Assembly (NCBI GenBank): GCA_963665325.3
Contig: CAXXWS020000002.1
Span: 576,001-640,000 of the forward strand
DNA from: Alphaproteobacteria bacterium
GTDB taxonomy: Bacteria > Pseudomonadota > Alphaproteobacteria > Bin95
Reading direction: 5' to 3'
DNA: 64,000 nt
The notes below the pieces were generated by a model, which had not been told where the DNA came from, did no database searches, and saw nothing but the letters and a program-made list of their open reading frames with translations. Numbering within the stretch: position 1 is the stretch's first letter; every line of letters begins with the position of its first letter. Shown here in pieces: positions 6,810-41,755 of this stretch. The position numbers and the translations under genes are program-made.

Positions 6810-7055
6810 TGAGTGTGCTCTCGGTATCTGATGGCGGGATGGTCACGTTGTTCGATGGTTTTCAGGCGTCGGGCCGGGCGTGACGGCGGGGGTGTCGGAC
6901 GGCCGTCGGCGCGTCAAGCCGCTTCGCGGCTCCTGCGCTGCGCTCCGGCCCTTCGGGTGACCCGCCGCCGTCCCTCCGACGGAGTGCATCCATGGCCGTA
7001 AGCAAGCTTCCGGCCACGGGCCGGCCGCTTTACGCAGTGTGACAATGGGAGCGGT

Positions 7056-7117
7056 GTTACCCGTTACCGTTACCCTCTCTCCCTAGGGGTTCGAGGCGGT
7101 AACGGTTTTCGGTAACG
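7056..7117. repeat. GTTACC/GGTAAC iteron-like cluster around a ccctaggg palindrome (copy 1)
   Basis: Three GTTACC opposed to two GGTAAC at the helicase 3' end. Confidence 0.7.
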
Positions 7118-8081
7118 TGTCCCTGCGGTCGTTGCCGTTGAGGGCGGCGAGGCGGTATCCGCCTTCGGATGCGCGCTCGACGCGTCCTTCGCGGACGAGC
7201 CTGTGCAGCGCCTCGGCGACGGTTGCGGGCCGGGTTGCCGCGCGCTCGCGGATCCGGCGCTGGGAGAGCGGCGCGTCGGCGTCGGCGAGGGCCTGCAGGA
7301 TGCGCCGTTCGGGGGTATCCGGCTCCGGCGCCTGGTCTTCCGGCGTCTCGCGCAACCGCAGGGCGGGGCGCTCGTCGTCGTCGGCGAGTTCGATCTCGAG
7401 GTCTTCGAGGCCAGGGGCGTCGCGATGCTCGACGGTCATGAGGATCTGGCGGTCTCGCCGGCGCAGGTACAGATTCGAATCGCCCCAGGCGTGAAGTTCG
7501 CTGCTGCCGCGCAGCGCCTGCCCGGGCCGGGAGCCGCCGCTCTTTCGTGCGTGATGGACGAGGAGGACGGCGGTTTCGAAGCGGCGCTGTATGTCGCGCA
7601 GGAAGCCCAGCATGGGGGCGACCTCGGCGACGGTATTTTCGTCGACGCCGTGCAGGCGCACGAGGGGGTCGAGGACGACGAGGCGGGGTGAGACGCGCTC
7701 CACCGTCTCGACCAGGCGCTGGCGATCGGCGCGATGGTCGAGACGCAGCGTGGGCACGTCGATGACGGCGATGTCGAGGGTCTCGAACGCGGTGCCTGCC
7801 GCCTTTGCGATGCCCTGGAGGCGTGCGCGCACGATATGGCCGGCGTCCTCGGCGGCGAACAGCAGCACGGGGCCGCTTGCGGCGGGACGGAAGTGGCGCA
7901 GGCAGGGGACGCCGGCGGCGACCGCGACGGCGATGTCGAGTGCGAGGAAGGATTTGCCGCACTTGGGCTCGCCGCCGACGATGCCGACGCCCTGCTCGGA
8001 CCACAACGCCTCGACCATCCAGCGGCGCGCCTGGGGGCGCTCTTCGAGCTCCGCCGGCGCCCGTGTCGGGAAGCCCTTCAC
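7083..8081 (-). CDS. RecA/RepA-like AAA_25 ATPase/helicase with C-terminal HTH
   Basis: Walker A GEPKCGKS, AAED, LVVLDPL, LLVHHARK, LRGSS; GTG start overlaps the ExeA stop. Confidence 0.85.
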   Translation of the reverse strand: MKGFPTRAPAELEERPQARRWMVEALWSEQGVGIVGGEPKCGKSFLALDIAVAVAAGVPCLRHFRPAASGPVLLFAAEDAGHIVRARLQGIAKAAGTAFETLDIAVIDVPTLRLDHRADRQRLVETVERVSPRLVVLDPLVRLHGVDENTVAEVAPMLGFLRDIQRRFETAVLLVHHARKSGGSRPGQALRGSSELHAWGDSNLYLRRRDRQILMTVEHRDAPGLEDLEIELADDDERPALRLRETPEDQAPEPDTPERRILQALADADAPLSQRRIRERAATRPATVAEALHRLVREGRVERASEGGYRLAALNGNDRRDTLPKTVTASNP

Positions 8082-8911
8082 CGCCGCGCCCTCCTCGGCT
8101 TGGCGGGTTCGCCCAGGGTCTCGATGAAGAGCTTCTCGTCGAGGACCTCGCGCTCCTTCTCGGCGGCGGCGGCGAGCAGGGCGTCGGCCATGACGGTGAG
8201 CGCCCGCGGGTTGCCGTCGGCATGGGCGACCAGGGTGTCCTTGAGGCCCGCGGTCATGAGGCCGGGATTGCCGGCCTGCTCGATCAGATGGTCGAGCAGG
8301 GCCGCGAGGTCGCCGGCCTCGGCCTTGGTCATGACCAGGCGCTGGCGGATGCGCGAGGCGATGGGCTGCAGATCGGGCTGGCGGAGCTTGTCGAGCAGGC
8401 GCGTGTCGCCGGCGAGGACGACCGAGAGGATGGCGCGCGAGTCGAAGTCGGTCGAAGCCAGCAGGCGGATCTCGGAGAACACCGAGGGCAGCAGCTCCTG
8501 GGCCTCGTCGACGAGCACGACGGGGCGCATGCGGGTATCGTCGACATGGGCGAGCCAGCGCTCGCGCAGGCTTTTGAAGCTGGCCCAGCGGTTGTTGTAC
8601 ATCAGGTCGACGCCGAACATCTCGCCGATCTCGCGGTAGAAGTCGGACAGCCGGGAGGAGGGATGGGTGATGGCGGCGATGCTGAGCCCCTCGCAGCGGC
8701 CGAGACGGTCGGCGAGCAGGCGCAACGCCACACTCTTTCCGGCGCCGGGCTCGCCGGCGATCAAGGCGAAGCCGCCCTGGCGCACCAGGTGGCGCTCGAT
8801 CCTGAGGCAGAAGCTGTCGACGGCAGGCGTCGCCATGAGACTGTCGACCGGCAGGTCGGTGGCGAAGGGGTTCCACTTGAGCCCGTAGAAGGTGAGCAGT
8901 TCCCGGTTCAT
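8078..8911 (-). CDS. ExeA/TniB/MuB-like AAA ATPase (transposition helper)
   Basis: FYGLKWNPF N-terminus, Walker A GEPGAGKS, Walker B VLVDEAQ, GNPR. Confidence 0.88.
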   Translation of the reverse strand: MNRELLTFYGLKWNPFATDLPVDSLMATPAVDSFCLRIERHLVRQGGFALIAGEPGAGKSVALRLLADRLGRCEGLSIAAITHPSSRLSDFYREIGEMFGVDLMYNNRWASFKSLRERWLAHVDDTRMRPVVLVDEAQELLPSVFSEIRLLASTDFDSRAILSVVLAGDTRLLDKLRQPDLQPIASRIRQRLVMTKAEAGDLAALLDHLIEQAGNPGLMTAGLKDTLVAHADGNPRALTVMADALLAAAAEKEREVLDEKLFIETLGEPAKPRRARR

Positions 8912-10383
8912 GGCGCATCTCCCCGATCTTCGTCCTCGCCCGGACCGGGCGTCTTGTCATGGGGCAGCCAGGCCGGCGGCAGGCCGGTTGCGGCCTGGGC
9001 GTCGAGCATGCCCTTGAGCAGCGGCGGAAGTTCCCCCGTCCCCGCGCCGCCATTGCCATCGTTGCCGCCGGGGCCGGCGGGACGGCGCACGCCATCGGCG
9101 TTGCCGCGCTTGTCGAGGGGGTACAGCGTGCACAGGCGCTCGCCGCCTCGACCGTCGATCAGATCGACGCTGGCGAGGTTCCAGCGCGCGTAACGGATCC
9201 AGGCCTCGCGCAGGTGGCGCCACGGCTGTGGCACCTGGTAGCGGATGCCCTCGACCGAGACGGTGCCGTCCGAGCGCCTGAGCGTGCGCTTCCTGGTGAT
9301 GCGGAAGGCCGCCTTGAGCTCGGCCGAGCCGGGGCAGGATCTCGACGCGTCGACGCTCCCGGCCAGGCGTTGATGCGGCGTCATGCCGAGCTCGCGGTGC
9401 TTGCGGCGGTGATAGTCCTGCTCCAGCCAGGCGATGGTGGCGTCGTTGAGCATCTTCAAGGTAAGCGCGTCGACGCCTTCGAGCTGAGCCATCAGGCGCG
9501 ATTCGACCGTGCCCCAGAACGACTCGATCTTGCCGTTCTGATGGGGGCTGTAAGCGAGCGTCGTGACCCCCGCGATGCCGAGCCGGTGCAACCCCTCCTC
9601 GACCTCGCCCGCGGTCATCGCCGCGCCGTTGTCGGTCAGCAGGGACCTCGGCAGACCGCGCTTCATGAAGGCCTGGCAAAGGCCGTGGACGAACACCTCG
9701 GCGGTCTCGGCGAGGTACCACTGAAGGTGGCAGCCGAGGCGCGAGTGGTCGTCGAGGAAGCCGAGCAGGATCGGCGTCTTCCACTCGCCCGAGGCGGTCA
9801 GCACGCGACGCTTGGCGCTGTGCATGTCGGCGTGCCACAGGGCGTGAGAGCGCGAGACCTCGTAGCTCAATACCTCGCGGGCTTCGACCGCCGGCCTGGC
9901 CTCGCTCTCATGCCACTTGCGCCGGCGCTTGCGTACCAGCCCGCGAGCCCGCATCGCCCGGGTCAGCGTCGCGTAGGACGGTATCGGGCCGAGCTCGGGA
10001 TCGGCCTCGACCCGCGCGGCCAGATTCTCGTGATGAAGCTGCGCCGACCACGACGGATGCGCCCGGTACTGCTCGTGCAGCGCCTCGATCAGCGTCGGCG
10101 ACATCGCGCGCGGGCGCCCGGCATCGGCGCGCGGGCGCCGCTTGAGCGCCCCCACCGGATCGTTGTCCGCCGCCCGCGCCTGGTAGTACCAGCGCTCGAT
10201 CGTGGACACCGCGAAGCGCACCCGGCCCTTGCCGGACGGGTGATCCCACTCGCGTTCGGCAAGCCGCTCAAGCTCGGCGTGCAGCCGCCCCGCCGGCGGC
10301 GGCGAGGCCAGAAGCGGCCCGACCACCGCGAAGCGCAACCGCGCCCACCGGTCGCGACGCTCGCTCCCGTCGTTGCTGTTCAT
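8908..10383 (-). CDS. DDE transposase (IS481/Mu-like, with Mu C-terminal domain)
   Basis: WHAD, LTDNG, NGKIE catalytic triad; DGTVSVEGIRYQVP. Confidence 0.92.
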   Translation of the reverse strand: MNSNDGSERRDRWARLRFAVVGPLLASPPPAGRLHAELERLAEREWDHPSGKGRVRFAVSTIERWYYQARAADNDPVGALKRRPRADAGRPRAMSPTLIEALHEQYRAHPSWSAQLHHENLAARVEADPELGPIPSYATLTRAMRARGLVRKRRRKWHESEARPAVEAREVLSYEVSRSHALWHADMHSAKRRVLTASGEWKTPILLGFLDDHSRLGCHLQWYLAETAEVFVHGLCQAFMKRGLPRSLLTDNGAAMTAGEVEEGLHRLGIAGVTTLAYSPHQNGKIESFWGTVESRLMAQLEGVDALTLKMLNDATIAWLEQDYHRRKHRELGMTPHQRLAGSVDASRSCPGSAELKAAFRITRKRTLRRSDGTVSVEGIRYQVPQPWRHLREAWIRYARWNLASVDLIDGRGGERLCTLYPLDKRGNADGVRRPAGPGGNDGNGGAGTGELPPLLKGMLDAQAATGLPPAWLPHDKTPGPGEDEDRGDAP

Positions 10384-10431
10384 TCCGGCATCCCCCTCGC
10401 TGCTTCGTGGAGGTGCCGATGATGCGGTGCC

Positions 10432-11046
10432 CTATCCGTGCATCATAGAAACGCTTTCTGCGGGCGAAGCCGGACCTGCGCCGAGCGCGCAAAAGCCGGT
10501 CCACGGCATCAGCCAGACCAGGCTCCGCAGCAGCCGCGAGCGGAAGCCACGGCCCCGCATGATGCGCAGCAGCCGGCGCAGCGGCGCCTCTTCGGGCGGC
10601 GCCGCCAGCTCGCCCCGTCTCGCCTGCCACTCCCGGGTCAGCGGGAAGGCTTCCAGCCACCAGCGCCGCCAGCGCTTCAGCGTCGAGGCCGGAACCCCGC
10701 ACCGCCGCGCGATCGTCTGCAACCGCGCGCCGCCGGCCACAGCCAGCGCACTCACCACAAGGAACAGCGCCCCGACGTAAAAGCGCCTGCCGAAGAAACG
10801 CACCGACGGCGGCTTCACGCGGCGTCGGCACACCGAACAGCACAGGCTGAAGCGCCGAACGTCGTTCCGAAGATTCGCCGCCAGACCGTGCGGCTTGCGC
10901 GGGTAGCTCGCGCTGTGAAGCGCGCCGCCGCAGCGCGGGCAACCCGCCGCCCGGCACGCCTCCGCCTCGGCCGCGTCGACCTGCTTCAGAAAATCCCAAA
11001 CCCGGGCGTTGGAGAGATTGGAGTGCCGGAACAGCTTGTGCGACAT
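10432..11046 (-). CDS. Transposon accessory protein with Zn-ribbon (CPRC/CSVC) and HTH
   Basis: CPRCGG...CCSVC, VPASTLKRWRRWW; first gene of the element. Confidence 0.7.
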   Translation of the reverse strand: MSHKLFRHSNLSNARVWDFLKQVDAAEAEACRAAGCPRCGGALHSASYPRKPHGLAANLRNDVRRFSLCCSVCRRRVKPPSVRFFGRRFYVGALFLVVSALAVAGGARLQTIARRCGVPASTLKRWRRWWLEAFPLTREWQARRGELAAPPEEAPLRRLLRIMRGRGFRSRLLRSLVWLMPWTGFCALGAGPASPAESVSMMHG

Positions 11047-11193
11047 TGGGGCCGTCTCAGGTTGATGTCACTGTCACCGAGACAAGCCCTCCGGCGGCCT
11101 TCTTGCAAGATCGCCGGGGGGCACCCAATCCAAAACCTCGATTAATCCGAGCCGATCAGCCCCTGATCGCCGCTGAAAGCCTGCGCCCGCTCA

Positions 11194-11268
11194 CTCGGTG
11201 AGTTCCTCGACCTTCTTGTGCTCGACCGGGTCGAGTTCGTCGATGAGGCTTTGGACGTTGAGAGGCAT
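11194..11268 (-). pseudogene. First 25 codons of a probable HigA/XRE antitoxin, truncated by the transposon
   Basis: MPLNVQSLIDELDPVEHKKVEELTE, TGATG-coupled to the toxin stop and terminated by the TGA of the IS end. Confidence 0.7.
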
Positions 11269-11633
11269 CAGCGTGGTCCTTTCTCTGCGAGCCGGGCAAG
11301 GTGGCGGTCGAAACGCTCGTCGGCCTTTCGGATGAGGTCTCGATAGAAGCGGCGGCTCGGGCGGCCCGACTTATCGCTAGCTACGAAGAGGATGGCGTTG
11401 CGGTGCGGGTCGAAGGCGAAGGCGATTCGCCACTCGCCCTGGGCGGCGGTGAGTCGCACTTCCTTCATGTTTACATGGCGGGACCCGTTGAGGGTGACGA
11501 CATAGGGCCGGCCGAGGTGGGGGCCATGCTCGCGAAGGATATTCGTTGTTGCGAGAATGGTTCTCCTTACTTCGGTTGGTAGATTGCGGTACTCCGGCAC
11601 GAATTCGTCGGCCAGCTCGACGTGCCAGTTCAT
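11268..11633 (-). CDS. RelE/HigB (Gp49-like) type II toxin
   Basis: GPHLGRP..TLNGSRH.NMKE.R...WRIAFAFDP.R.AIL...DKSG...FY..LI..AD. Confidence 0.85.
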   Translation of the reverse strand: MNWHVELADEFVPEYRNLPTEVRRTILATTNILREHGPHLGRPYVVTLNGSRHVNMKEVRLTAAQGEWRIAFAFDPHRNAILFVASDKSGRPSRRFYRDLIRKADERFDRHLARLAEKGPR

Positions 11634-11639
11634 GACTGG

Positions 11640-11668
11640 AGCTTGTTGCGCCGGGTGGCGCAAGTCAA
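11640..11668 (-). promoter_or_regulatory. Putative toxin promoter with palindromic operator TTGCGC-N6-GCGCAA (11646-11663)
   Basis: Minus strand TTGACT-N17-CAAGCT just ahead of the ATG; the palindrome fills the spacer. Confidence 0.5.
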
Positions 11669-11713
11669 GGTTGCGGGGTGGAGCATGGTGGCCTCCTGGG
11701 CAAGCAACGGTCG

Positions 11714-11756
11714 TCGGGACGAAATCTGTTCTGAACTTGGGTATCGGGACGAAATC
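11714..11756. repeat. 13-bp direct repeat tcgggacgaaatc x2
   Basis: Copies at 11714-11726 and 11744-11756. Confidence 0.7.
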
Positions 11757-11779
11757 GGGTTGGACCGGGCGGAGATGAC

Positions 11780-11813
11780 AAAAAAAGGGGCCGCCGCTGG
11801 TTAGCGACGGCCC
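11780..11813 (-). terminator. Intrinsic terminator after ssb
   Basis: gggccgccgct/agcgacggccc stem with T7 on the minus strand. Confidence 0.75.
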
Positions 11814-11847
11814 GGGTTGGGGAGGAAGACAGGGAGGCGCGACGTCC

Positions 11848-12279
11848 TCAGAAGGGGATGTCGCTGTCGAGGTCGGCCGGTGCCGGGACGGGGTTCGACG
11901 CTGCGGGCTCGCGGTTGATGCCGAAGTCGTGGTCCTTGTCGAGGAACTGGATGCGTCCGCTCGGGACGACGAGGATCTCGGTCGAGTAGCGGTCGTTGCC
12001 GTCCTGGTCCTGCCACTTCCGGGTCTGGAGCTTGCCCTCGACCTGGACCAGCCGGCCCTTGACCGCCTTGCGCTCGAGGATGTCGACCAGGCCGTCCTGG
12101 AAGGTGGTGACGCGGTGCCATTCGGTCTTCTGGACGCGCTCGCCCCGGTTCTTGTCGTAATAGCCCTCGTCGGTGGCGATCGAGATATTTGCGACCTTCG
12201 TGCCGGTGGCGAGGTGGGAGATCGCGGCGGCGGCGCCGAGGCGACCGATGAGGAGGACCCTGTTCATTCCGAAAGCCAT
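11848..12279 (-). CDS. ssb: Single-stranded DNA-binding protein
   Basis: NRVLLIGRLG, TEWHRV, VEGKLQTRKW, acidic tail DSDIPF. Confidence 0.93.
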   Translation of the reverse strand: MAFGMNRVLLIGRLGAAAAISHLATGTKVANISIATDEGYYDKNRGERVQKTEWHRVTTFQDGLVDILERKAVKGRLVQVEGKLQTRKWQDQDGNDRYSTEILVVPSGRIQFLDKDHDFGINREPAASNPVPAPADLDSDIPF

Positions 12280-12376
12280 GGGATGGCTCCTTCGTTGTCT
12301 GGATGTTGACTTGAGTTGGGAACCGGACGACCGGACCGGGTGGCCCGATCGTCATTCGGTTCATCCGTGACCGGCT

Positions 12377-12547
12377 CTACTCAAACTCTTCGATGTCGAA
12401 GCGTGCGCCGGCGGGAGGGTTGTCGGGCAGGATCTCGCGGATCGCGCGGCCGCTGAGCCCGATTTCGGAGAGCAGTTCGCCGGTGGTGCCGGACGCTGGA
12501 TGGTCGCGCGGCTTGACGTGCTCGGTGGCATCGAAGTCATGGAACAT
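12377..12547 (-). CDS. Small hypothetical protein (56 aa)
   Basis: ATG preceded by GAAGG; co-oriented with its neighbours. Confidence 0.45.
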   Translation of the reverse strand: MFHDFDATEHVKPRDHPASGTTGELLSEIGLSGRAIREILPDNPPAGARFDIEEFE

Positions 12548-12789
12548 GGAAGCGCCTTCCGTTGGAGTGGGCCCGGTGTGCCGGGCGTCTACGCGGAAAG
12601 GGCTTTGCTCAATCTCATGGCACCGTTTTTCGGTGCCAGGGCGCTTGCGTGGGCCTTCGGCGATAGGCCGACGGGGTACAAGCAGAAGGGCCGGCACTAC
12701 GTGAGCACCGGCCCTGGCAAGCGGCTGGTTGTGGCGGCGGGTCAGGGGATGAGCTTTACCGCGGCGCGTGCAGGTGTGGGAGCTAAGGT

Positions 12790-13236
12790 CTAGCTTGCTG
12801 GAGCGACACTTGGCGCGGTGTTCCGAATGAGGGCATCGAGGGCCTTCATGGTTTGCGTATGGCGCTTGTCGAGGGCCTTCATGACTTCCTCGTGGCGCCG
12901 TTCGCTTTCCGCGCGCTCGGCGGCAAGGGAAGCCATGGCTTCCTTGTGGCGATCGGCCTCGGCATTCATGGCTTCCTTGTGGCGGTCGCCTTCGGCCTCC
13001 ATGGCGTCCTGGTGGCGAGCGTCGCGCTTCTCGCTGGCTTCGGTCATCCTGGCTATGCCGCGGGCGACGACGCGGATCTGGAAGAAGCCGATAACGCATC
13101 CGGCGACGACCAGGGCGGCGGTAACGATGACGAGGGCGGCGGTGACGGTCACCATGTCGCCGGTGGCGATGGCGGTAGCGGCTTGCGGATTCGTTGGCGC
13201 CAGCGTTGTTATGTCGGTGAAGAACATTTCGTACAT
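12790..13236 (-). CDS. Membrane-anchored coiled-coil protein with 11-residue RHxEAM repeats
   Basis: Strong RBS AAGGAGG; hydrophobic helix, then RHQDAM/RHKEAM/RHKEAM/RHEEVM/RHTQTM. Confidence 0.7.
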   Translation of the reverse strand: MYEMFFTDITTLAPTNPQAATAIATGDMVTVTAALVIVTAALVVAGCVIGFFQIRVVARGIARMTEASEKRDARHQDAMEAEGDRHKEAMNAEADRHKEAMASLAAERAESERRHEEVMKALDKRHTQTMKALDALIRNTAPSVAPAS

Positions 13237-13395
13237 CGTTTAGCCCTCCTTTGGCGGGGTCGCAAGTTGGCGCGGCGGGTGTTCCTTCCGCGCGAAGTCA
13301 CCCGTACGGGGCTGTCCTCTGCTTGCGGATCGCGACAGGGTGGCGGGTAGTTGCGGGCCGAAGGCCGCTGAACGGTGGCCGGCGGCGCATGCATG

Positions 13396-13425
13396 AAAAA
13401 GGCCGGCACTCATGGAGTGCCGGCC
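13396..13425 (-). terminator. Intrinsic terminator after the second ssb
   Basis: Perfect 11-bp stem ggccggcactc/gagtgccggcc plus T5 on the minus strand. Confidence 0.8.
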
Positions 13426-13446
13426 AGCTGGGGGAGGAAAGGTCCG

Positions 13447-13878
13447 TCAGAACGGGATTTCAGGCGCCGGGCCCGACGGCGGCGGGGCTGCCGCTTCCGC
13501 CGGCGGCCCGGAGGCGGGCGCCTTGTCCTCGGGACGGTCGAGGAACTCCATGCGGCCTTCCTGGTTGACGACGATCTCCATGGTGTAGCGGTCGTTGCCG
13601 TCCCGGTCCTGCCATTTGCGGTGCCACATCTTGCCGGAGACGAAGATCTTGCGGCCGCTCGAGCCGTGCTTGTCGAGCAGTTCGATCAGCGACTTCTGGA
13701 AGGTCACCACGCGGTGCCACTGGGTGCGTTTCACGGTCTCGCGCGCGTTCCGGTCCCAGTAGCTTTCGTCGGTCGCGACGGAGAGCGCTGCGACCCGGTC
13801 TCCGTTCTGCATCGTACGAATTTCGGGATCGTGCCCGAGGTGACCTATGACCTCGGCGCGATTCAGTCCATATGCCAT
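13447..13878 (-). CDS. ssb: Single-stranded DNA-binding protein (paralog)
   Basis: NRAEVIGHLGHDPEIR, TQWHRV, RKWQDRDGNDRY, ends EIPF. Confidence 0.92.
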   Translation of the reverse strand: MAYGLNRAEVIGHLGHDPEIRTMQNGDRVAALSVATDESYWDRNARETVKRTQWHRVVTFQKSLIELLDKHGSSGRKIFVSGKMWHRKWQDRDGNDRYTMEIVVNQEGRMEFLDRPEDKAPASGPPAEAAAPPPSGPAPEIPF

Positions 13879-13943
13879 CGGTATGCTCCTGCATGGCTGG
13901 TTGACGGGCCGCAGGGGGATTCTGCGCTGTTCGGAGTCCGGGA

Positions 13944-14390
13944 TCAATCGCCGGGACGGGCGCCAGGGACGGGGAGAGTTTCGAGCTCGGGGAACCGGCG
14001 ATCGCGATAGACCTGTCCCAGGCTGACGAGCTCGAGGGCGCTCCGGTGCGGGGGCATCAGGCATATCATGCGCCGGACCCGCTCCCGGGCGACCTCGAGG
14101 CGGCGCCGCTCGTGTCGTATGGCATGGTCGCAGCGCTTCGCCCGGGCGGCAGCCTCGGCGATGTTGCTCCAGAGGATCGGCAAGGGAGGGTCGGCCCGGT
14201 CGAACGCGGCGCCGACGGCCTGCCATTCCGCGAGCGCCGCATCGCGCTCGATCTCGGCCGCCCGAAAGTCATCGGCGCCAGGCGCCGGATGGCCGTACCA
14301 GTGCGGGATGGCAACGTGCGAACGGGAGCCGGCCGCCTGCGGCCGGGGAGGCCCCTCGCCGTGGAAGGGAAGGACGAGCTGAATGGGCAT
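13944..14390 (-). CDS. Hypothetical protein
   Basis: RBS CAGGAG; fits the gap between toprim and ssb. Confidence 0.55.
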   Translation of the reverse strand: MPIQLVLPFHGEGPPRPQAAGSRSHVAIPHWYGHPAPGADDFRAAEIERDAALAEWQAVGAAFDRADPPLPILWSNIAEAAARAKRCDHAIRHERRRLEVARERVRRMICLMPPHRSALELVSLGQVYRDRRFPELETLPVPGARPGD

Positions 14391-14411
14391 GGGCAAGGCT
14401 CCTGGACGGTG

Positions 14412-15410
14412 TCAGGCACGGGACGTGCAGCCGAGACACTGGCGGATGGCGTAGGCGCCGCCGGCGGCGAGGTCCTCGTTGAAGTCGCCAAGCTCGGGCG
14501 CCAGGACGCGGAAGCGGATCCCGCTCTGGCCGCAGCGCTTCGCGAGATTGTCCGCAGCTGCGCCGCCGTCGCGGCCGGCGTCCCGGGCGATAGCTACGCG
14601 CCGGCCGCGGGGAGGGACGAAGGCGCCGAGGCTGCCTGCGGACAGCGCGGCCGCGCCGGCGGCTCCGGGATATGCCGTGAGCAGCGAGAGAACGGTCTCG
14701 ATCCCCTCGCCGACGATCAGCACGGGATCGGGCCTTGCGTCGGCGGGTCCGAAGCGGACGGCCTGGCCATAGACGGGGCCGAGGGCCTTCTTCGGAGCCG
14801 GCACGTCGGCCTTCGCCGGCCGGTCCGGATCGAGGTAGGTGCGCAGCACGCCGGTGAGGCGGCCGGCGCCGTTCGTAACCGCGGCGACCAGGGCGGGATA
14901 TTCGCGCTGCGAGCTGCTGCCCGGGTCGCGGTAGCGGAGCTTCGGGTGGAACCGGAGCGAGGCGAACCGGCAGCGCTCGATGCCGCGCGCCTGCAGGTAG
15001 GCCTCGGCGTGGGTGCCGTCGATCGGCCGACAATAGCGCCAGAGGCGCAACGCGGCTCCGGAAGGATTGGCTTCGGCAGGACCGGCCGGCTCCGGCGCCT
15101 GGCGCGCGGGAAGTGCGAGGAAGGACCGGGCCTCGGAAAGGACGGCCGCCAGGCTGGTGCTGCGCGAATGGTGGCGAATGATGTCGAGCAGGTCGCCATG
15201 AGTTCCGTTCGCCATATCGTTCCATTTCCCGGGCCTTCCGGGAGCGCGGAGACGGACGATCAGCGAATGGCCGCGAGAGCCGTCGATATCGCCGACGACC
15301 CAGTAGCGCCCCTGGCGTTCGCCGGCGGGCAGATAGTGCCGGCAGACGTCCTCGGCTTGGGCGGCCAGGGCAGCGGCGATTTGGGTGGCGGGTGATGAGC
15401 AGGCATGCAT
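14412..15410 (-). CDS. Toprim-domain primase-like protein (ICE/plasmid type)
   Basis: VCRHYLPAG...GDLLD, YLQARGI, RTYL, IVGEGIETVLS, IARD, GDFNEDL. Confidence 0.85.
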   Translation of the reverse strand: MHACSSPATQIAAALAAQAEDVCRHYLPAGERQGRYWVVGDIDGSRGHSLIVRLRAPGRPGKWNDMANGTHGDLLDIIRHHSRSTSLAAVLSEARSFLALPARQAPEPAGPAEANPSGAALRLWRYCRPIDGTHAEAYLQARGIERCRFASLRFHPKLRYRDPGSSSQREYPALVAAVTNGAGRLTGVLRTYLDPDRPAKADVPAPKKALGPVYGQAVRFGPADARPDPVLIVGEGIETVLSLLTAYPGAAGAAALSAGSLGAFVPPRGRRVAIARDAGRDGGAAADNLAKRCGQSGIRFRVLAPELGDFNEDLAAGGAYAIRQCLGCTSRA

Positions 15411-15611
15411 GGGAGTTCTCCCGGTTGGCGGCAGCACGAAAGGCGGCGGCTGCAAGGGCAGCGGCCGGGTTCGGCATCGATCGCGGTGGTGGTAGTGGCG
15501 CCGGGGGTCGGAGCGGCGCGGCGGCCGGCTGGTCGTCCGGAGCCCCGAAGGATTCGTCAGGCGGGCGCTTTACTCAAACTAGCCGATCCCTCTTCCGGTC
15601 GCCTTCATTAC

Positions 15612-15655
15612 AAAAAAAGGGCATGGACCGCTGGTCGATTGCAGCAGTCCATGCC
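15612..15655 (-). terminator. Intrinsic terminator
   Basis: ggcatggac...gtccatgcc stem with T7 on the minus strand. Confidence 0.65.
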
Positions 15656-15822
15656 GATCGGTGATGTGGATTGAGACTGTGGGTGAGGCGCGTTATTGGC
15701 TCATCGCAGGTGCCGGAAGGGGTAGGATATCGGTTGAAATTCCGGCGACCTGGCGAAAGGCGGAGAACGCTGCAGCAGCGTTGGTGGATGAAAGATGAGG
15801 CCGCAGCCGTTGCAGGGTGAGG

Positions 15823-16281
15823 CTACTCGTCCGCACCGCCGGTTTGAGGAGCAGGATCGTCGCTCAGCAGGTTGCGGGCGATGATGTAGCGCTCGATGAA
15901 GTCGAGCTTGCCGAGGATCGAGCCTTTCAGCTCGGCCTGGCCGGTTTCGAGGGAACGGAGACGCTCGTCGAAGCCGTCCATGCGATTGTCGAAGCGCTGC
16001 TCTAGGCCGTCGATGCGCTTGTCGAGTCGTTGCTCGAGTCCGTCCATGCGCTTGTCGAGTCCGTCCATGCGCTTGTCGAGGCTGTCGATGCGCTTGTCGA
16101 CGCCGTCGAAGCGCTTGTCGACGCCATCGAAGCGCTTGTCGACGCCGTCGAAGCGCTTGTCGACGCCGTCGAAGCACTTGTCGACGCCGTCGAAGCGTAT
16201 ACCGATCCCGTGATGGCCGCGAAGCATGAGTCCTGCGAGTGCCACGCCGACGGCGAGGATGGCGATCGTTTCCGGGGTCAT
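15823..16281 (-). CDS. Membrane-anchored heptad-repeat coiled-coil protein (FDGVDKR)n
   Basis: N-terminal hydrophobic helix followed by about 8 heptads. Confidence 0.75.
   Translation of the reverse strand: MTPETIAILAVGVALAGLMLRGHHGIGIRFDGVDKCFDGVDKRFDGVDKRFDGVDKRFDGVDKRIDSLDKRMDGLDKRMDGLEQRLDKRIDGLEQRFDNRMDGFDERLRSLETGQAELKGSILGKLDFIERYIIARNLLSDDPAPQTGGADE
16033..16197. repeat. 21-bp coding tandem repeat (gcgcttgtcgacgccgtcgaa-like), about 8 units
   Basis: Visible directly; encodes the heptads. Confidence 0.85.
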
Positions 16282-16368
16282 GTTGAAATCCTAGCAGGTT
16301 GGGGGTTGACCGTCATCCTGGAGTGGGTGACGACGGGTTCCAGGACTCCGTGTATGGAGCGACGCGGG

Positions 16369-16632
16369 TCAGTGAAGATGTCCGGGCGGGCGGCCGATGG
16401 ACATGCAGTCAGCCACAAAGCTGTGCCACGAGGTGCGATCGAAGCCGAGGCGGGCGTTAAGGCGATCGCAGATGGTGTTTGCGTCGCCGAGGTTGGCGGC
16501 GGCCATGTCGGTCGGGATGTAGCCGGCGGCGTTTTCGAAGACGATGATGATCCTCTGGGCGCTGGTTTCGGGGAGGTCGTAGGCGGGAGAGAAGGCGAAG
16601 TTGAGGGTGTGCGGAAGGGGTTGAGGGGTCAT
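16369..16632 (-). CDS. Hypothetical protein (87 aa)
   Basis: ATGA-coupled to the PAPS-reductase gene. Confidence 0.6.
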   Translation of the reverse strand: MTPQPLPHTLNFAFSPAYDLPETSAQRIIIVFENAAGYIPTDMAAANLGDANTICDRLNARLGFDRTSWHSFVADCMSIGRPPGHLH

Positions 16633-17462
16633 GGGATCGACTCCGGGTTGACGGGGATTCCGGTGACCGCTGGAAGCGGCAGCCGGGTTGGGGAGAGGGT
16701 ATGGCCGATGCGGTGCTCGAGGGCGGCATACCGGGCGTAGAGCCGGGGGCGGAGTTCGGCAGCCCGGCGCAGGTCGGCGCGCGATGCGAGGATGCAGAAC
16801 GAGCAGCTCAGCCTGGTCATGCCGGCGGCATAGGCCCAGTGGGGAGACTGTCCCGCGCGTTCTATGGCGTTGAAGACTTCTGCTTCGGAGAAATCGAATA
16901 TGGGCAGCCAGTCGTGCCAGTCGCGGCCGGCCTTGCTGTTGCGGGCGTTGCGTGACCACGGAGTGCGCCTGGACCGATCGGTACTCTCGTCGGCGCGGAT
17001 GCCCATGCAGTTGACGATCCGGCCGGCAAATCGGGGATGTGCTGAGAGGTGCCGGCGGAGCTCGCGTTCGATGGGTCCGCGCTTGAAATCGCTGGTGCAG
17101 AAGCGCCGGCGCTTGTCCGGAAACAGCCCCCTCAGCTCGATGCGTTCGAGAAGGGACTGGCCGGAGGCGATCGGCGCGATGATGAGGGGCAGGCCGCGGG
17201 GCATGGTGGCCTCTATGTGGGAGATGGTGTCGGGCCATTCGACTTCGCCGAGCGGCGCGTGGACGATGACGATCCGGTCGTGGGGGATGAACCTTGACAG
17301 GAGGATCGTCATCGCCTGGCTATCTTTTCCTCCGCTGTGATTGATGGCGAACAGGGCACCGTCGCGGATCATGCGGCGGCAGGCGGGCGGTACGAGGAGG
17401 CGCCGCGCGGGAGGGGGAACGGGCCGGGCATTTTGCCCGACCGCGCCGGTTGGTTGGTTCAT
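16629..17462 (-). CDS. Phosphoadenosine phosphosulfate (PAPS) reductase-family protein
   Basis: PP-loop SGGKDS, FCTSDFKRGPI, GIRADES, RLSCSFC. Confidence 0.88.
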   Translation of the reverse strand: MNQPTGAVGQNARPVPPPARRLLVPPACRRMIRDGALFAINHSGGKDSQAMTILLSRFIPHDRIVIVHAPLGEVEWPDTISHIEATMPRGLPLIIAPIASGQSLLERIELRGLFPDKRRRFCTSDFKRGPIERELRRHLSAHPRFAGRIVNCMGIRADESTDRSRRTPWSRNARNSKAGRDWHDWLPIFDFSEAEVFNAIERAGQSPHWAYAAGMTRLSCSFCILASRADLRRAAELRPRLYARYAALEHRIGHTLSPTRLPLPAVTGIPVNPESIP

Positions 17463-17489
17463 GGCGAGGTCTCCGGATCGGTCGCGGCG

Positions 17490-17826
17490 TCAGGCGGCGA
17501 CGGGCCATTGCTCGAGGACGCGGTCGAGGACGCGGGCTTCGGGAGCGAAGGTCCGGGCGCGCCATGAGATGATCTCGACGGTGCAGCCCATGCGTTTGAG
17601 GGCGGCGGTGTCGCGGTCGACGGGTCCCTCGATCTCGATGCGGTGCGCGCCCATGATGCGTCGCCTCGCGAGGCGCCAGCCGTTCGAGAGAGCGAGGGCC
17701 TTGCCCCGGTCCATGATTGCTTCGTAGGCGTCGGTGCCGGTCATGGCGGGACCGCCGTCGAGGCCAAAGGCCTGGCGGACGGCGCGGACCTGGTCGGCGT
17801 CGAGGACGCGCCCGAGGAGGGACAGT
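17490..17826 (-). pseudogene. 3' end of the strawberry-notch gene, separated by transposon copy 2
   Basis: LSLLGRVLDADQVRAVR...EIISWRARTF continues ...RRLTTDDG from 22211; shares the acagt TSD. Confidence 0.85.
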
Positions 17827-17973
17827 TGAGCGGGCGCAGGCTTTCAGCGGCGATCAGGGGCTGATCGGCTCGGATTAATCGAGGTTTTGGATTGGGTGCC
17901 CCCCGGCGATCTTGCAAGAAGGCCGCCGGAGGGCTTGTCTCGGTGACAGTGACATCAACCTGAGACGGCCCCA

Positions 17974-18588
17974 ATGTCGCACAAGCTGTTCCGGCACTCC
18001 AATCTCTCCAACGCCCGGGTTTGGGATTTTCTGAAGCAGGTCGACGCGGCCGAGGCGGAGGCGTGCCGGGCGGCGGGTTGCCCGCGCTGCGGCGGCGCGC
18101 TTCACAGCGCGAGCTACCCGCGCAAGCCGCACGGTCTGGCGGCGAATCTTCGGAACGACGTTCGGCGCTTCAGCCTGTGCTGTTCGGTGTGCCGACGCCG
18201 CGTGAAGCCGCCGTCGGTGCGTTTCTTCGGCAGGCGCTTTTACGTCGGGGCGCTGTTCCTTGTGGTGAGTGCGCTGGCTGTGGCCGGCGGCGCGCGGTTG
18301 CAGACGATCGCGCGGCGGTGCGGGGTTCCGGCCTCGACGCTGAAGCGCTGGCGGCGCTGGTGGCTGGAAGCCTTCCCGCTGACCCGGGAGTGGCAGGCGA
18401 GACGGGGCGAGCTGGCGGCGCCGCCCGAAGAGGCGCCGCTGCGCCGGCTGCTGCGCATCATGCGGGGCCGTGGCTTCCGCTCGCGGCTGCTGCGGAGCCT
18501 GGTCTGGCTGATGCCGTGGACCGGCTTTTGCGCGCTCGGCGCAGGTCCGGCTTCGCCCGCAGAAAGCGTTTCTATGATGCACGGATAG
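17974..18588 (+). CDS. Transposon accessory Zn-ribbon/HTH protein
   Basis: Identical to 10432-11046. Confidence 0.7.
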   Translation: MSHKLFRHSNLSNARVWDFLKQVDAAEAEACRAAGCPRCGGALHSASYPRKPHGLAANLRNDVRRFSLCCSVCRRRVKPPSVRFFGRRFYVGALFLVVSALAVAGGARLQTIARRCGVPASTLKRWRRWWLEAFPLTREWQARRGELAAPPEEAPLRRLLRIMRGRGFRSRLLRSLVWLMPWTGFCALGAGPASPAESVSMMHG

Positions 18589-18636
18589 GGCACCGCATCA
18601 TCGGCACCTCCACGAAGCAGCGAGGGGGATGCCGGA

Positions 18637-20112
18637 ATGAACAGCAACGACGGGAGCGAGCGTCGCGACCGGTGGGCGCGGTTGCGCTTCGCGGTGGTCG
18701 GGCCGCTTCTGGCCTCGCCGCCGCCGGCGGGGCGGCTGCACGCCGAGCTTGAGCGGCTTGCCGAACGCGAGTGGGATCACCCGTCCGGCAAGGGCCGGGT
18801 GCGCTTCGCGGTGTCCACGATCGAGCGCTGGTACTACCAGGCGCGGGCGGCGGACAACGATCCGGTGGGGGCGCTCAAGCGGCGCCCGCGCGCCGATGCC
18901 GGGCGCCCGCGCGCGATGTCGCCGACGCTGATCGAGGCGCTGCACGAGCAGTACCGGGCGCATCCGTCGTGGTCGGCGCAGCTTCATCACGAGAATCTGG
19001 CCGCGCGGGTCGAGGCCGATCCCGAGCTCGGCCCGATACCGTCCTACGCGACGCTGACCCGGGCGATGCGGGCTCGCGGGCTGGTACGCAAGCGCCGGCG
19101 CAAGTGGCATGAGAGCGAGGCCAGGCCGGCGGTCGAAGCCCGCGAGGTATTGAGCTACGAGGTCTCGCGCTCTCACGCCCTGTGGCACGCCGACATGCAC
19201 AGCGCCAAGCGTCGCGTGCTGACCGCCTCGGGCGAGTGGAAGACGCCGATCCTGCTCGGCTTCCTCGACGACCACTCGCGCCTCGGCTGCCACCTTCAGT
19301 GGTACCTCGCCGAGACCGCCGAGGTGTTCGTCCACGGCCTTTGCCAGGCCTTCATGAAGCGCGGTCTGCCGAGGTCCCTGCTGACCGACAACGGCGCGGC
19401 GATGACCGCGGGCGAGGTCGAGGAGGGGTTGCACCGGCTCGGCATCGCGGGGGTCACGACGCTCGCTTACAGCCCCCATCAGAACGGCAAGATCGAGTCG
19501 TTCTGGGGCACGGTCGAATCGCGCCTGATGGCTCAGCTCGAAGGCGTCGACGCGCTTACCTTGAAGATGCTCAACGACGCCACCATCGCCTGGCTGGAGC
19601 AGGACTATCACCGCCGCAAGCACCGCGAGCTCGGCATGACGCCGCATCAACGCCTGGCCGGGAGCGTCGACGCGTCGAGATCCTGCCCCGGCTCGGCCGA
19701 GCTCAAGGCGGCCTTCCGCATCACCAGGAAGCGCACGCTCAGGCGCTCGGACGGCACCGTCTCGGTCGAGGGCATCCGCTACCAGGTGCCACAGCCGTGG
19801 CGCCACCTGCGCGAGGCCTGGATCCGTTACGCGCGCTGGAACCTCGCCAGCGTCGATCTGATCGACGGTCGAGGCGGCGAGCGCCTGTGCACGCTGTACC
19901 CCCTCGACAAGCGCGGCAACGCCGATGGCGTGCGCCGTCCCGCCGGCCCCGGCGGCAACGATGGCAATGGCGGCGCGGGGACGGGGGAACTTCCGCCGCT
20001 GCTCAAGGGCATGCTCGACGCCCAGGCCGCAACCGGCCTGCCGCCGGCCTGGCTGCCCCATGACAAGACGCCCGGTCCGGGCGAGGACGAAGATCGGGGA
20101 GATGCGCCATGA
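18637..20112 (+). CDS. DDE transposase (IS481/Mu-like)
   Basis: Identical to 8908-10383. Confidence 0.92.
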   Translation: MNSNDGSERRDRWARLRFAVVGPLLASPPPAGRLHAELERLAEREWDHPSGKGRVRFAVSTIERWYYQARAADNDPVGALKRRPRADAGRPRAMSPTLIEALHEQYRAHPSWSAQLHHENLAARVEADPELGPIPSYATLTRAMRARGLVRKRRRKWHESEARPAVEAREVLSYEVSRSHALWHADMHSAKRRVLTASGEWKTPILLGFLDDHSRLGCHLQWYLAETAEVFVHGLCQAFMKRGLPRSLLTDNGAAMTAGEVEEGLHRLGIAGVTTLAYSPHQNGKIESFWGTVESRLMAQLEGVDALTLKMLNDATIAWLEQDYHRRKHRELGMTPHQRLAGSVDASRSCPGSAELKAAFRITRKRTLRRSDGTVSVEGIRYQVPQPWRHLREAWIRYARWNLASVDLIDGRGGERLCTLYPLDKRGNADGVRRPAGPGGNDGNGGAGTGELPPLLKGMLDAQAATGLPPAWLPHDKTPGPGEDEDRGDAP

Positions 20113-20942
20113 ACCGGGAACTGCTCACCTTCTACGGGCTCAAGTGGAACCCCTTCGCCACCGACCTGCCGGTCGACAGTCTCATGGCGACGCCTGCCGT
20201 CGACAGCTTCTGCCTCAGGATCGAGCGCCACCTGGTGCGCCAGGGCGGCTTCGCCTTGATCGCCGGCGAGCCCGGCGCCGGAAAGAGTGTGGCGTTGCGC
20301 CTGCTCGCCGACCGTCTCGGCCGCTGCGAGGGGCTCAGCATCGCCGCCATCACCCATCCCTCCTCCCGGCTGTCCGACTTCTACCGCGAGATCGGCGAGA
20401 TGTTCGGCGTCGACCTGATGTACAACAACCGCTGGGCCAGCTTCAAAAGCCTGCGCGAGCGCTGGCTCGCCCATGTCGACGATACCCGCATGCGCCCCGT
20501 CGTGCTCGTCGACGAGGCCCAGGAGCTGCTGCCCTCGGTGTTCTCCGAGATCCGCCTGCTGGCTTCGACCGACTTCGACTCGCGCGCCATCCTCTCGGTC
20601 GTCCTCGCCGGCGACACGCGCCTGCTCGACAAGCTCCGCCAGCCCGATCTGCAGCCCATCGCCTCGCGCATCCGCCAGCGCCTGGTCATGACCAAGGCCG
20701 AGGCCGGCGACCTCGCGGCCCTGCTCGACCATCTGATCGAGCAGGCCGGCAATCCCGGCCTCATGACCGCGGGCCTCAAGGACACCCTGGTCGCCCATGC
20801 CGACGGCAACCCGCGGGCGCTCACCGTCATGGCCGACGCCCTGCTCGCCGCCGCCGCCGAGAAGGAGCGCGAGGTCCTCGACGAGAAGCTCTTCATCGAG
20901 ACCCTGGGCGAACCCGCCAAGCCGAGGAGGGCGCGGCGGTGA
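20109..20942 (+). CDS. ExeA/TniB/MuB-like AAA ATPase
   Basis: Identical to 8078-8911. Confidence 0.88.
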   Translation: MNRELLTFYGLKWNPFATDLPVDSLMATPAVDSFCLRIERHLVRQGGFALIAGEPGAGKSVALRLLADRLGRCEGLSIAAITHPSSRLSDFYREIGEMFGVDLMYNNRWASFKSLRERWLAHVDDTRMRPVVLVDEAQELLPSVFSEIRLLASTDFDSRAILSVVLAGDTRLLDKLRQPDLQPIASRIRQRLVMTKAEAGDLAALLDHLIEQAGNPGLMTAGLKDTLVAHADGNPRALTVMADALLAAAAEKEREVLDEKLFIETLGEPAKPRRARR

Positions 20943-21937
20943 AGGGCTTCCCGACACGGGCGCCGGCGGAGCTCGAAGAGCGCCCCCAGGCGCGCCGCTG
21001 GATGGTCGAGGCGTTGTGGTCCGAGCAGGGCGTCGGCATCGTCGGCGGCGAGCCCAAGTGCGGCAAATCCTTCCTCGCACTCGACATCGCCGTCGCGGTC
21101 GCCGCCGGCGTCCCCTGCCTGCGCCACTTCCGTCCCGCCGCAAGCGGCCCCGTGCTGCTGTTCGCCGCCGAGGACGCCGGCCATATCGTGCGCGCACGCC
21201 TCCAGGGCATCGCAAAGGCGGCAGGCACCGCGTTCGAGACCCTCGACATCGCCGTCATCGACGTGCCCACGCTGCGTCTCGACCATCGCGCCGATCGCCA
21301 GCGCCTGGTCGAGACGGTGGAGCGCGTCTCACCCCGCCTCGTCGTCCTCGACCCCCTCGTGCGCCTGCACGGCGTCGACGAAAATACCGTCGCCGAGGTC
21401 GCCCCCATGCTGGGCTTCCTGCGCGACATACAGCGCCGCTTCGAAACCGCCGTCCTCCTCGTCCATCACGCACGAAAGAGCGGCGGCTCCCGGCCCGGGC
21501 AGGCGCTGCGCGGCAGCAGCGAACTTCACGCCTGGGGCGATTCGAATCTGTACCTGCGCCGGCGAGACCGCCAGATCCTCATGACCGTCGAGCATCGCGA
21601 CGCCCCTGGCCTCGAAGACCTCGAGATCGAACTCGCCGACGACGACGAGCGCCCCGCCCTGCGGTTGCGCGAGACGCCGGAAGACCAGGCGCCGGAGCCG
21701 GATACCCCCGAACGGCGCATCCTGCAGGCCCTCGCCGACGCCGACGCGCCGCTCTCCCAGCGCCGGATCCGCGAGCGCGCGGCAACCCGGCCCGCAACCG
21801 TCGCCGAGGCGCTGCACAGGCTCGTCCGCGAAGGACGCGTCGAGCGCGCATCCGAAGGCGGATACCGCCTCGCCGCCCTCAACGGCAACGACCGCAGGGA
21901 CACGTTACCGAAAACCGTTACCGCCTCGAACCCCTAG
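20939..21937 (+). CDS. RecA/RepA-like AAA_25 ATPase/helicase
   Basis: Identical to 7083-8081. Confidence 0.85.
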   Translation: MKGFPTRAPAELEERPQARRWMVEALWSEQGVGIVGGEPKCGKSFLALDIAVAVAAGVPCLRHFRPAASGPVLLFAAEDAGHIVRARLQGIAKAAGTAFETLDIAVIDVPTLRLDHRADRQRLVETVERVSPRLVVLDPLVRLHGVDENTVAEVAPMLGFLRDIQRRFETAVLLVHHARKSGGSRPGQALRGSSELHAWGDSNLYLRRRDRQILMTVEHRDAPGLEDLEIELADDDERPALRLRETPEDQAPEPDTPERRILQALADADAPLSQRRIRERAATRPATVAEALHRLVREGRVERASEGGYRLAALNGNDRRDTLPKTVTASNP

Positions 21938-21964
21938 GGAGAGAGGGTAACGGTAACGGGTAAC
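21903..21964. repeat. GTTACC/GGTAAC iteron-like cluster (copy 2)
   Basis: cgttaccg x2, cccctaggg, ggtaac x3. Confidence 0.7.
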
Positions 21965-22210
21965 ACCGCTCCCATTGTCACACTGCGTAAAGCGGCCGGC
22001 CCGTGGCCGGAAGCTTGCTTACGGCCATGGATGCACTCCGTCGGAGGGACGGCGGCGGGTCACCCGAAGGGCCGGAGCGCAGCGCAGGAGCCGCGAAGCG
22101 GCTTGACGCGCCGACGGCCGTCCGACACCCCCGCCGTCACGCCCGGCCCGACGCCTGAAAACCATCGAACAACGTGACCATCCCGCCATCAGATACCGAG
22201 AGCACACTCA

Positions 22211-39677: not shown

Positions 39678-39959
39678 ATGGTGGCGTCTAGGCGGGATCT
39701 GGCGGTTAGAGTGCAGGAGAAGCTCGGTATTTCGAACGTGGCTGCTCAGCGGATCGTGACGGCAGTGGTCGAATCGCAGACGGAATTGCTGGTGGAACAG
39801 GAAGGGTTACAGGTCAGGGGATTGGGATCGTTCAGGGTGATCCATCATGCCGAAACGCGGGCCCGCAATCCGCAGACGGGCGAGCCGGTCGTGGTTCCGG
39901 CCGGCAAGCGGGTGAAGTTCAACCCGTCGAGCGTGTTGAGGCGTGCGCTCTCTGAGTAG
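39678..39959 (+). CDS. HU/IHF-family DNA-binding protein
   Basis: GLGSF...RARNPQTGEPVVVPAGKRVKF.PS. Confidence 0.92.
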   Translation: MVASRRDLAVRVQEKLGISNVAAQRIVTAVVESQTELLVEQEGLQVRGLGSFRVIHHAETRARNPQTGEPVVVPAGKRVKFNPSSVLRRALSE

Positions 39960-41568: not shown

Positions 41569-41755
41569 TGTGGGTTCCAGTGCATCAAAAGCGGCTCGGG
41601 CGATACAATGACCCGGGCGCATGAAGAGACTATCGAATGCGAGTCCGTGCGAGGAAGCCGGAATCCACGGGTGGGCGCAGTCTCCAGTTGTCGCAGCCGG
41701 ACCGGCGATTGCTGAATTGCGCTGCGGGCGAAGGGCATCGGTCTCCGTTTGGGGG

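Follow-up and report, generated by a model that had tools for sequence, protein, structure and literature searches.

A helicase-bearing relative of transposon Tn6049 in an alphaproteobacterial genome and its putative replication module

Members of the Tn6049 transposon family reside on metal-resistance megaplasmids and on a clinical Pseudomonas plasmid and are mechanistically unstudied; our literature search returned no mechanistic study of Tn6049. The element was named in 2010 in Cupriavidus metallidurans CH34, where a passage of PMC2864759 counts 12 copies and describes it as frequently linked to genomic islands, and a passage of PMC4739549 reports an imperfect inverted repeat of 12 bp (TGTGCaTaAGCA), repeats of 4 bp and TG...CA ends. 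More generally, the hand-over from transpososome to replisome is well worked out for phage Mu only, where it is accomplished by host restart proteins. Here, we describe a 4384-bp transposon found in two copies in a stretch of 64,000 nucleotides (hereafter the window; positions 576,001 to 640,000 of contig CAXXWS020000002.1, assembly GCA_963665325.3) from an alphaproteobacterial genome, which carries the three core genes of Tn6049 together with a fourth gene for a predicted helicase of the RepA/DnaB type.

The original prediction, made from the letters of the window alone, had suggested a poorly described new class of transposons. This was not upheld, since the core genes are those of the named Tn6049: the first open reading frame (ORF1), the transposase and the ATPase are 40%, ~50% and 52% identical to their Tn6049 counterparts and stand in the same order. 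By sequence, the element is a helicase-bearing variant of the Tn6049 family and neither Tn6049 itself nor a new class. What is known is the Tn6049 core, and what is new is the helicase-bearing form, a fifth, primase-like gene in part of its relatives and a conserved hairpin built from hexamer repeats.

Copies, ends and core genes of the transposon

The two copies in the window form an inverted pair with 100% complementary arms of 4384 nt and a spacing of 6633 nt, and no direct repeat was found in the window. The assembly (five contigs, 5.58 Mb) holds 24 copies, 23 full and one split, which make up ~1.9% of the genome's DNA; 21 of the full copies are identical to those of the window and two have 99.98% identity. 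All copies start with TGAGCGGGCG and finish with AGCACACTCA, giving TGAG...CTCA ends and a terminal inverted repeat (TIR) with 8 of 11 positions matching, and repeat comparison and end sequences thus agree with the two identical copies, TG...CA ends and TIR that had been predicted. The split copy, which has the same end bases as the others, contains a 2070-bp insertion sequence (IS; C1:2290873-2292942) that lies in the helicase-hairpin loop with a CTAG duplication and is present in 12 full copies in the genome.

Exact target site duplications (TSDs) of 5 bp flank 10 of the 24 copies and exact duplications of 4 bp flank another eight; a duplication of either length is therefore seen in 18/24 copies, far above chance, and none in the remaining six. 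The 5-bp TSD of the original prediction stands for copy 2 (ACAGT at 17822-17826 and 22211-22215) and fails for copy 1, whose flanks, CCGAG and CCGGG, form no duplication. Across the 24 insertion sites there is no obvious site specificity. The element recurs in contigs from a different sequencing run, with 14 differences over its length, the same two end bases and different flanks. The common ends, the duplications and the other flanks in another run together indicate a real and recently active transposon, and we consider it highly probable that the unit is an active member of the Tn6049 family, comprising a DNA-binding Zn-ribbon/helix-turn-helix (HTH) protein, a DDE transposase cutting at TG...CA and a MuB-like AAA+ ATPase for the preparation of target DNA, and producing duplications of 4-5 bp.

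Hybrid flanks were observed in 6/24 copies. The copies at C4:930514-934897 and C2:25283-29666 have reciprocal flanks (CGACC common at 5/5 positions and ACGG at 4/4), which looks like recombination between two copies by which replicons were exchanged or split. A composite transposon formed by the inverted pair is ruled out, as its outer flanks do not match (CCCGG versus ACAGT) and copy 2 has a duplication of its own. The orientation of the copies is concordant with local GC skew in 18/24 cases, in a genome in which copies cluster and contigs lack a clean replichore pattern. The original prediction had also suggested a look for circular junctions (CTCA-TGAG); no right-end-to-left-end junction, circular or tandem, was found in the contigs of four runs, the element's own genome, 91 loci searched by regular expression or metagenome contigs with element ends, a search of contigs only and hence no proof of absence, and the family-level junction pattern gave a single chance match in an unrelated coding region. 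Neither an Rfam match nor, in a promoter scan, a promoter was found on the element, and terminator-like sites occur at chance level. RNA contigs of run X17 match parts of the element at 95-99% identity, which is no demonstration of transcription of this element.

Domain matches bear out all four predicted genes, namely those for a Zn-ribbon/HTH protein, a transposase, a MuB-like ATPase and an AAA_25 protein with HTH (Table 1). In ORF1, all of 17 sequences compared keep residues C36, C39, C70 and C73 alongside a WRRWW motif, and the leading ESM Atlas match is DUF6431; its AlphaFold2 (AF2) model, with a mean predicted local distance difference test (pLDDT) of 60.5, was too poor for a fold search. 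Residues D186, D251 and E287 of the transposase are invariant in comparison with Tn6049. This protein had been called Mu/IS481-like; its match to the IS481 equivalog NF033577 reaches 124 bits, where the cut-off is 224. IS481-family insertion sequences have a single gene and measure ~1-1.5 kb; membership in that family is ruled out by the score and by the presence of four genes in 4.4 kb.

The ATPase gene follows the transposase gene with an ATGA overlap (20109-20112). A profile of 19 related ATPases matches MuB (8xvb) at E 5.7e-8 and ShTnsC, the TnsC of a CRISPR-associated transposon (CAST), at 0.02, and the protein also matches phrog_296, 'DNA transposition protein', in PHROGs. The two genes are, as judged by these matches, a Mu-like transposition module in which a MuB-type AAA+ ATPase adjoins a DDE transposase. 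Searches of the four proteins with Pfam and NCBIfam (E <= 0.01) returned no TniQ, TnsD, TnsA or resolvase family, in agreement with the predicted lack of TniQ and resolvase; on the same grounds, and with DUF6431 as the lead for ORF1, membership among Tn7-like/Tn5053 elements was rejected.

The link to Tn6049 came from a tblastn search of the transposase against 72,556 plasmids, in which Cupriavidus megaplasmids and pHS87a of P. aeruginosa were found to encode an 'IS481 family transposase' with ~50% identity. The gene order on pHS87a is a 181-aa 'transposase', a 479-aa transposase, a 277-aa AAA ATPase and a 90-aa hypothetical protein, and a tree of the transposases places Tn6049 within the group that is sister to the main clade of helicase-bearing elements. 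Tn6049 and the element share collinear core genes, a fourth open reading frame (ORF) overlapping the ATPase stop codon, TG...CA ends with a short imperfect TIR, 4-bp repeats, high copy number and an association with islands. They differ in that Tn6049 measures 3.5 kb and has a 90-aa fourth ORF, without similarity to the helicase, in place of the 332-aa AAA_25 protein of the 4384-bp element, and in that Tn6049 has neither a primase gene nor a hexamer-repeat hairpin of the element's type. One further locus (L080, MTNJ01000060.1), binned as Candidatus Acetothermia, matches the ORF1 and the 90-aa ORF of the pHS87a Tn6049 at 100% identity; its bin label is probably a binning or contamination artefact.

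The helicase gene, the hairpin and the primase-like gene of relatives

The fourth gene begins with a GTG codon in a GTGA overlap with the ATPase stop codon (20939-20942), seven bases downstream of GAGGAGG, and a 4-bp overlap of the same two genes is kept in 15/15 representatives, which confirms the predicted translational coupling. The best solved relative of its product is RepA of RSF1010 (1g8y), with E 2.4e-8 for the single sequence and 6.5e-18 for a profile of 65 sequences, in which DnaB comes next at 3e-4. The AF2 model (pLDDT 91.6) matches DnaB, RadA and RepA in Foldseek, with TM scores of 0.70-0.75 over RepA, and the RepA-like nature that had been predicted is therefore supported by both profile and fold. 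Walker A Lys43, Walker B Asp138, HH176-177 and Arg191 are invariant or nearly so in the 65 sequences, and in PHROGs the protein has matches to phage primase-helicase families, in their helicase part. With a RecA core, Walker A and B motifs, an arginine finger and resemblance to RepA, it is a predicted ATPase of the RepA/DnaB type (superfamily 4, SF4). No defence family was matched in PADLOC.

The C-terminal winged helix gave profile matches to ZBP1 at ~5e-4. A Z-alpha reading was dropped, since Ala and His occupy the aligned positions of the Z-DNA-contacting Asn and Tyr.

The ratio of nonsynonymous to synonymous substitution rates (dN/dS; Nei-Gojobori, 13 pairs) is 0.27-0.58 for the helicase gene, well below 1 and similar to the core genes (transposase 0.23-0.47, ATPase 0.16-0.75 and ORF1 0.28-0.74). 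Within a pair, dS differs between genes by up to fivefold, which indicates that the elements are mosaics.

To survey relatives, genome contigs were searched with an alignment of the two transposases; of the 460 relatives found, the 80 best loci were kept. In 58 of the 80 an uninterrupted helicase gene comes next after the ATPase gene; it is cut or interrupted in 11 (L015, L018, L022, L037, L051 and L071-L076) and gave no match in another 11, which comprise four loci with the transposase cut, five Tn6049 loci and two with other small ORFs (L086 and L087). Counted by assembly, the helicase is present in 17/25. The order ORF1, transposase, ATPase, helicase persists in loci whose transposase identity is as low as 52% (L090), and the survey of gene order that had been suggested thus came out in favour of a conserved arrangement. 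The helicase subfamily has 7823 matches at E <= 0.001 among 8000 candidates scored and 489 representatives at E <= 1e-30; the best 120 matches listed are 72-86% identical, the query's own cluster apart. By contrast, among 400 other genomes sampled across the phylum, only two have a helicase match at 1e-40. In the 72,556 plasmid records there is no close helicase homologue (maximum 30.5% identity), and megablast of the whole element against plasmids gave no match.

The element is present in runs labelled as sponge metagenome, and near-identical elements occur in several assemblies and sequencing studies. Labels outside Alphaproteobacteria are attached to contigs of 3.5-6.5 kb with little beyond the element, and transfer across phyla is therefore not secure.

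In other assemblies, three different insertions strike helicase codons 152-160 (L051:7765-10448; L071-L076 from ~7783; L018:7774): an IS66 element with an 8-bp duplication, a 3.6-kb element and a third junction. The 3.6-kb insert has three tyrosine-recombinase genes and 75-bp inverted repeats and was seen in both orientations. Several truncated helicase proteins in databases stop at residues 157-160, and these codons may be an insertion hot spot. A group II intron was rejected as the cause of interruption, as there was no Rfam match and the inserts are IS66 and the tyrosine-recombinase element.

At the end of the helicase gene lies an inverted array of hexamer repeats predicted to form a hairpin, with a counterpart in 15/16 representatives. 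The hexamers of this element are GTTACC/GGTAAC; most relatives have GTTCCC/GGGAAC and two have GTTTCC/GGAAAC, and the arms co-vary. Folded as single-stranded DNA, the hairpin has a predicted energy of -14.5 kcal/mol (z -2.13) in this element and of -17 to -34 kcal/mol in several relatives, and it has no T-run. The first residue of the recognition helix of the winged helix tracks the hexamer type (RP, RA, RN).

In relatives measuring 5.0-5.3 kb the helicase gene is followed by a fifth gene, and the hairpin then lies between the two. Its product of 276-289 aa has DUF3991 and Toprim_2 domains and weakly matches phage primases in PHROGs, and its PADLOC match is limited to the DnaG-like part of one DRT model. 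Of 17 helicase-bearing assemblies, eight have the fifth gene, six lack it with the right end in view and three cannot be judged; the window's genome, outside these 17, is a seventh case without it. The transposase tree has the forms with four genes nested among those with five, so the four-gene state looks derived. Given the shared right-end sequence and the mosaicism, it may have had a single origin and spread thereafter.

Possible roles of the helicase module

The conserved and coupled helicase gene, the hairpin and the primase gene of sister elements point to an unusual, putative replication module, and from their sequences the helicase and hairpin are probably replication-related; the primase-like gene of relatives strengthens, by inference, such a role. 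We propose that a replication-type module was acquired in the slot after the ATPase gene. The ring-helicase-type ATPase resembling RepA and DnaB would bind, probably through its winged helix, the predicted hairpin at the end of its own gene, with a Toprim primase encoded next in many relatives. Mu-like strand transfer would leave forked ends, and the element's helicase, with its own primase or host DnaG, would load onto the right end to initiate copying of the element, which would then be independent of the host restart primosome. Cointegrates and rearrangements would be settled by host recombination, because there is no resolvase.

We place the chance that this explanation, a Tn6049-type core joined to a portable primosome, is correct overall at about even, and the chance that the module itself is a portable primosome at even or slightly below. 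The broader proposal, a widespread Mu/Tn6049-type clade whose helicase, accompanied by a Toprim primase or not, loads itself at a cognate hairpin close to the right end with no need for PriA-DnaC, is tentative and in our view rather doubtful.

Several observations weigh against the portable primosome. Genes for a primase, an initiator and a polymerase are all missing from the element, and the window's genome lacks any homologue of DUF3991-Toprim. Its own hairpin is modestly stable, with 4 of 200 shuffles folding equally well, and the link between recognition-helix residue and hexamer type is a weak hint because the two sequences are physically linked. In Tn6049 and two other relatives a small unrelated ORF occupies the helicase slot, which implies that the helicase is not needed for the transposition chemistry of the family. 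The hybrid flanks of six copies fit a replicative pathway without resolvase, and recombination between 4.4-kb repeats fits them equally. Helicase activity, DNA binding and a replicative mechanism are, moreover, all predictions drawn from sequence. A passage of PMC13192273 lists laboratory deletions of CH34 with the wording 'except Tn6049', which fits a replicative pathway and homologous recombination equally.

That the helicase might be absent from close relatives and dispensable had been named as a point that would count against the original prediction. It applies to Tn6049, which lacks the gene and indicates that the family core can move without it; it does not apply within the helicase-bearing clade, where the gene is kept, coupled and under a dN/dS well below 1.

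Among the alternatives, the one that survives best, which we nevertheless regard as unlikely, is that the helicase regulates or remodels transposition, either by target choice (forks or incoming conjugative DNA, as with Tn7 TnsE) or by disassembling the transpososome (as ClpX does for Mu). It would explain why the helicase gene is always coupled to that of the target-DNA ATPase and why the equally coupled slot of Tn6049 holds a different small protein, as if for an exchangeable accessory factor. A copy of the element lies within 40 kb of each of the genome's four strawberry-notch genes and their islands, and island association is also reported for Tn6049 in the passage of PMC2864759; such clustering is, however, expected from tolerated insertions as well. 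Against a regulator, replicative ring helicases come closest in both sequence and fold, and relatives pair the gene with a primase-like one, for which a target selector would have no use.

DUF3991-Toprim pairs are usually linked to primases of conjugative elements. Somewhat less probable again is a module serving horizontal spread, which would prime the complementary strand at the hairpin when the element enters as single-stranded DNA and would permit early expression and hopping in any host. The one paper in our search that joins DUF3991, Toprim and primase concerns DNA transfer among gut Bacteroidales; the element sits in plasmid-like islands (with RepC, ParB, a serine recombinase and a single-stranded DNA-binding protein (SSB) in the window), and near-identical elements are spread across assemblies and studies. 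The hairpin as a priming signal is, however, unsupported, this element has no primase and some copies lie far from islands.

A helicase gene carried as plain cargo, its role directed at the host or at conflict and having nothing to do with movement, would suit the variable fourth slot of the family and the exchange of modules between elements that is visible in the widely different dS of genes within a pair; we think it very unlikely given the ATPase overlap in all 15 representatives, dN/dS like that of core genes, the empty PADLOC search and the conserved hairpin alongside. The least probable reading, which takes up the amplified excised form of the original prediction, is an excised circle replicating transiently like a small plasmid, with helicase and hairpin as a minimal origin module: IS481/IS3-type transposases make circles and the helicase-hairpin(-primase) layout recalls the repA/ssi/repB of IncQ plasmids, but there is no initiator or polymerase gene and the MuB-like ATPase points to Mu/Tn7-style target capture.

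Should the portable primosome prove real, an active transposon with a replicative-type helicase, and with a primase in sister elements, would be a natural experiment on the hand-over from transpososome to replisome and a bacterial counterpart of 'self-synthesising' transposons. A true primosome clade would consist of elements largely independent of the host, as IncQ plasmids are, and would explain bursts (24 copies here and many in several other assemblies) in sponge-associated bacteria.

Surroundings in the window and comparison with known systems

The element shapes the genome it inhabits through gene disruptions, a deletion junction in the window and a two-contig exchange traceable to it. 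Copy 2 splits a strawberry-notch-like gene, of which the genome also holds three intact paralogs with the two parts contiguous (Table 1). Copy 1 is flanked by truncated, unrelated genes, and the continuation of the 431-aa paralog gene is found nowhere in the window, which identifies this copy as a deletion or rearrangement junction and not a fresh insertion. The surrounding 11-50 kb form a plasmid-like island with genes for SSB, a PAPS-reductase-like protein, RadC, DUF7146-Toprim, a large serine recombinase, ParB and RepC. Elsewhere in the window, a Terminase_2 small-terminase gene stands alone at 62222-63202, and a near-tandem repeat at ~15970-16200 (84% over ~190 bp, offset ~33-42 bp) lies inside an ORF with a DUF7310 coiled-coil match.

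Table 1. Features of the transposon and its surroundings in the window
Feature	Position	Position in copy 1	Strand	Remarks
Transposon copy 2	17827..22210		+	simple insertion; TSD on both sides
Transposon copy 1		6810..11193	-	identical and inverted to copy 2; deletion junction between unrelated genes
ORF1, 204 aa, Zn-ribbon + HTH	17974..18588	10432-11046, -	+	HTH_23
DDE transposase, 491 aa	18637..20112	8908-10383, -	+	rve/HTH_32
MuB/TniB-like AAA+ ATPase, 277 aa	20109..20942	8078-8911, -	+	AAA_22 5e-20; counterpart of Tn6049 'gspA'
RepA/DnaB-type RecA-fold ATPase, C-terminal winged helix, 332 aa	20939..21937	7083-8081, -	+	AAA_25 4.7e-36 + winged HTH
Inverted hexamer-repeat hairpin, 2x GTTACC ... 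3x GGTAAC	21904..21964		+	spans helicase stop codon
Right end, 273 bp, non-coding	21938..22210		+	no Rfam match
Strawberry-notch-like gene, N-terminal 1379 codons	22211..26348		-	AAA_34 + Helicase_C_4; split by copy 2
Same strawberry-notch-like gene, C-terminal 110 codons	17490..17821		-	split by copy 2
Gene start, first 73 codons	6590..6809		+	431 aa in two paralogs (C1:1.972 Mb, C3:0.546 Mb); cut by copy 1
25-codon gene stub	11194..11268		-	downstream of Gp49-type toxin gene (11268-11663); truncated by copy 1
Island genes	26601-49373			RadC, DUF7146+Toprim_3, 1036-aa YspA/SLOG; serine recombinase 39919-42069; ParB 43800-44972; RepC 47382-49373

Our literature search found no paper on a transposon carrying a replicative helicase of this kind; ISfinder and TnCentral entries lay outside the comparison. 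The portion of Benler et al. (PMC8649781) dealing with replicative Tn7-like elements discusses resolvases and mentions no transposon-borne replicative helicase. Mu (MuA/MuB) and Tn7-like/Tn5053 elements (TnsB/TnsC or TniB) likewise pair a DDE transposase with an AAA+ ATPase and have TG...CA ends and 5-bp duplications, whereas the transposase of the element is IS481-like, albeit below the cut-off of that family, with no TnsA, TniQ or resolvase match and no obvious site specificity. Replication of phage Mu depends on PriA-DnaB-DnaC of the host; the element, in contrast, carries a helicase gene of its own.

The IncQ plasmid RSF1010 provides, with RepA, the best solved relative of the helicase, and relatives of the element pair helicase and primase with the hairpin between them. 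Unlike RepA, the fourth protein carries an additional winged helix at its C terminus, and its module resides in a transposon and not in a plasmid. The element also differs in having neither a RepC-like initiator nor an iteron origin, its repeats being one inverted hexamer array and not direct iterons, and an IncQ-type replication module was rejected, as there is no initiator and no primase of the relatives' type in element or genome. The primase of RSF1010 is of the RepB' type, whereas that of the relatives combines DUF3991 and Toprim. Casposons, Polintons and Helitrons, finally, are also mobile elements carrying replication proteins for their own copying; they do so with a polymerase or a Rep-helicase fusion and with other integrases, whereas the present element joins a DDE/AAA+ core to a helicase only, with a primase added in its relatives.

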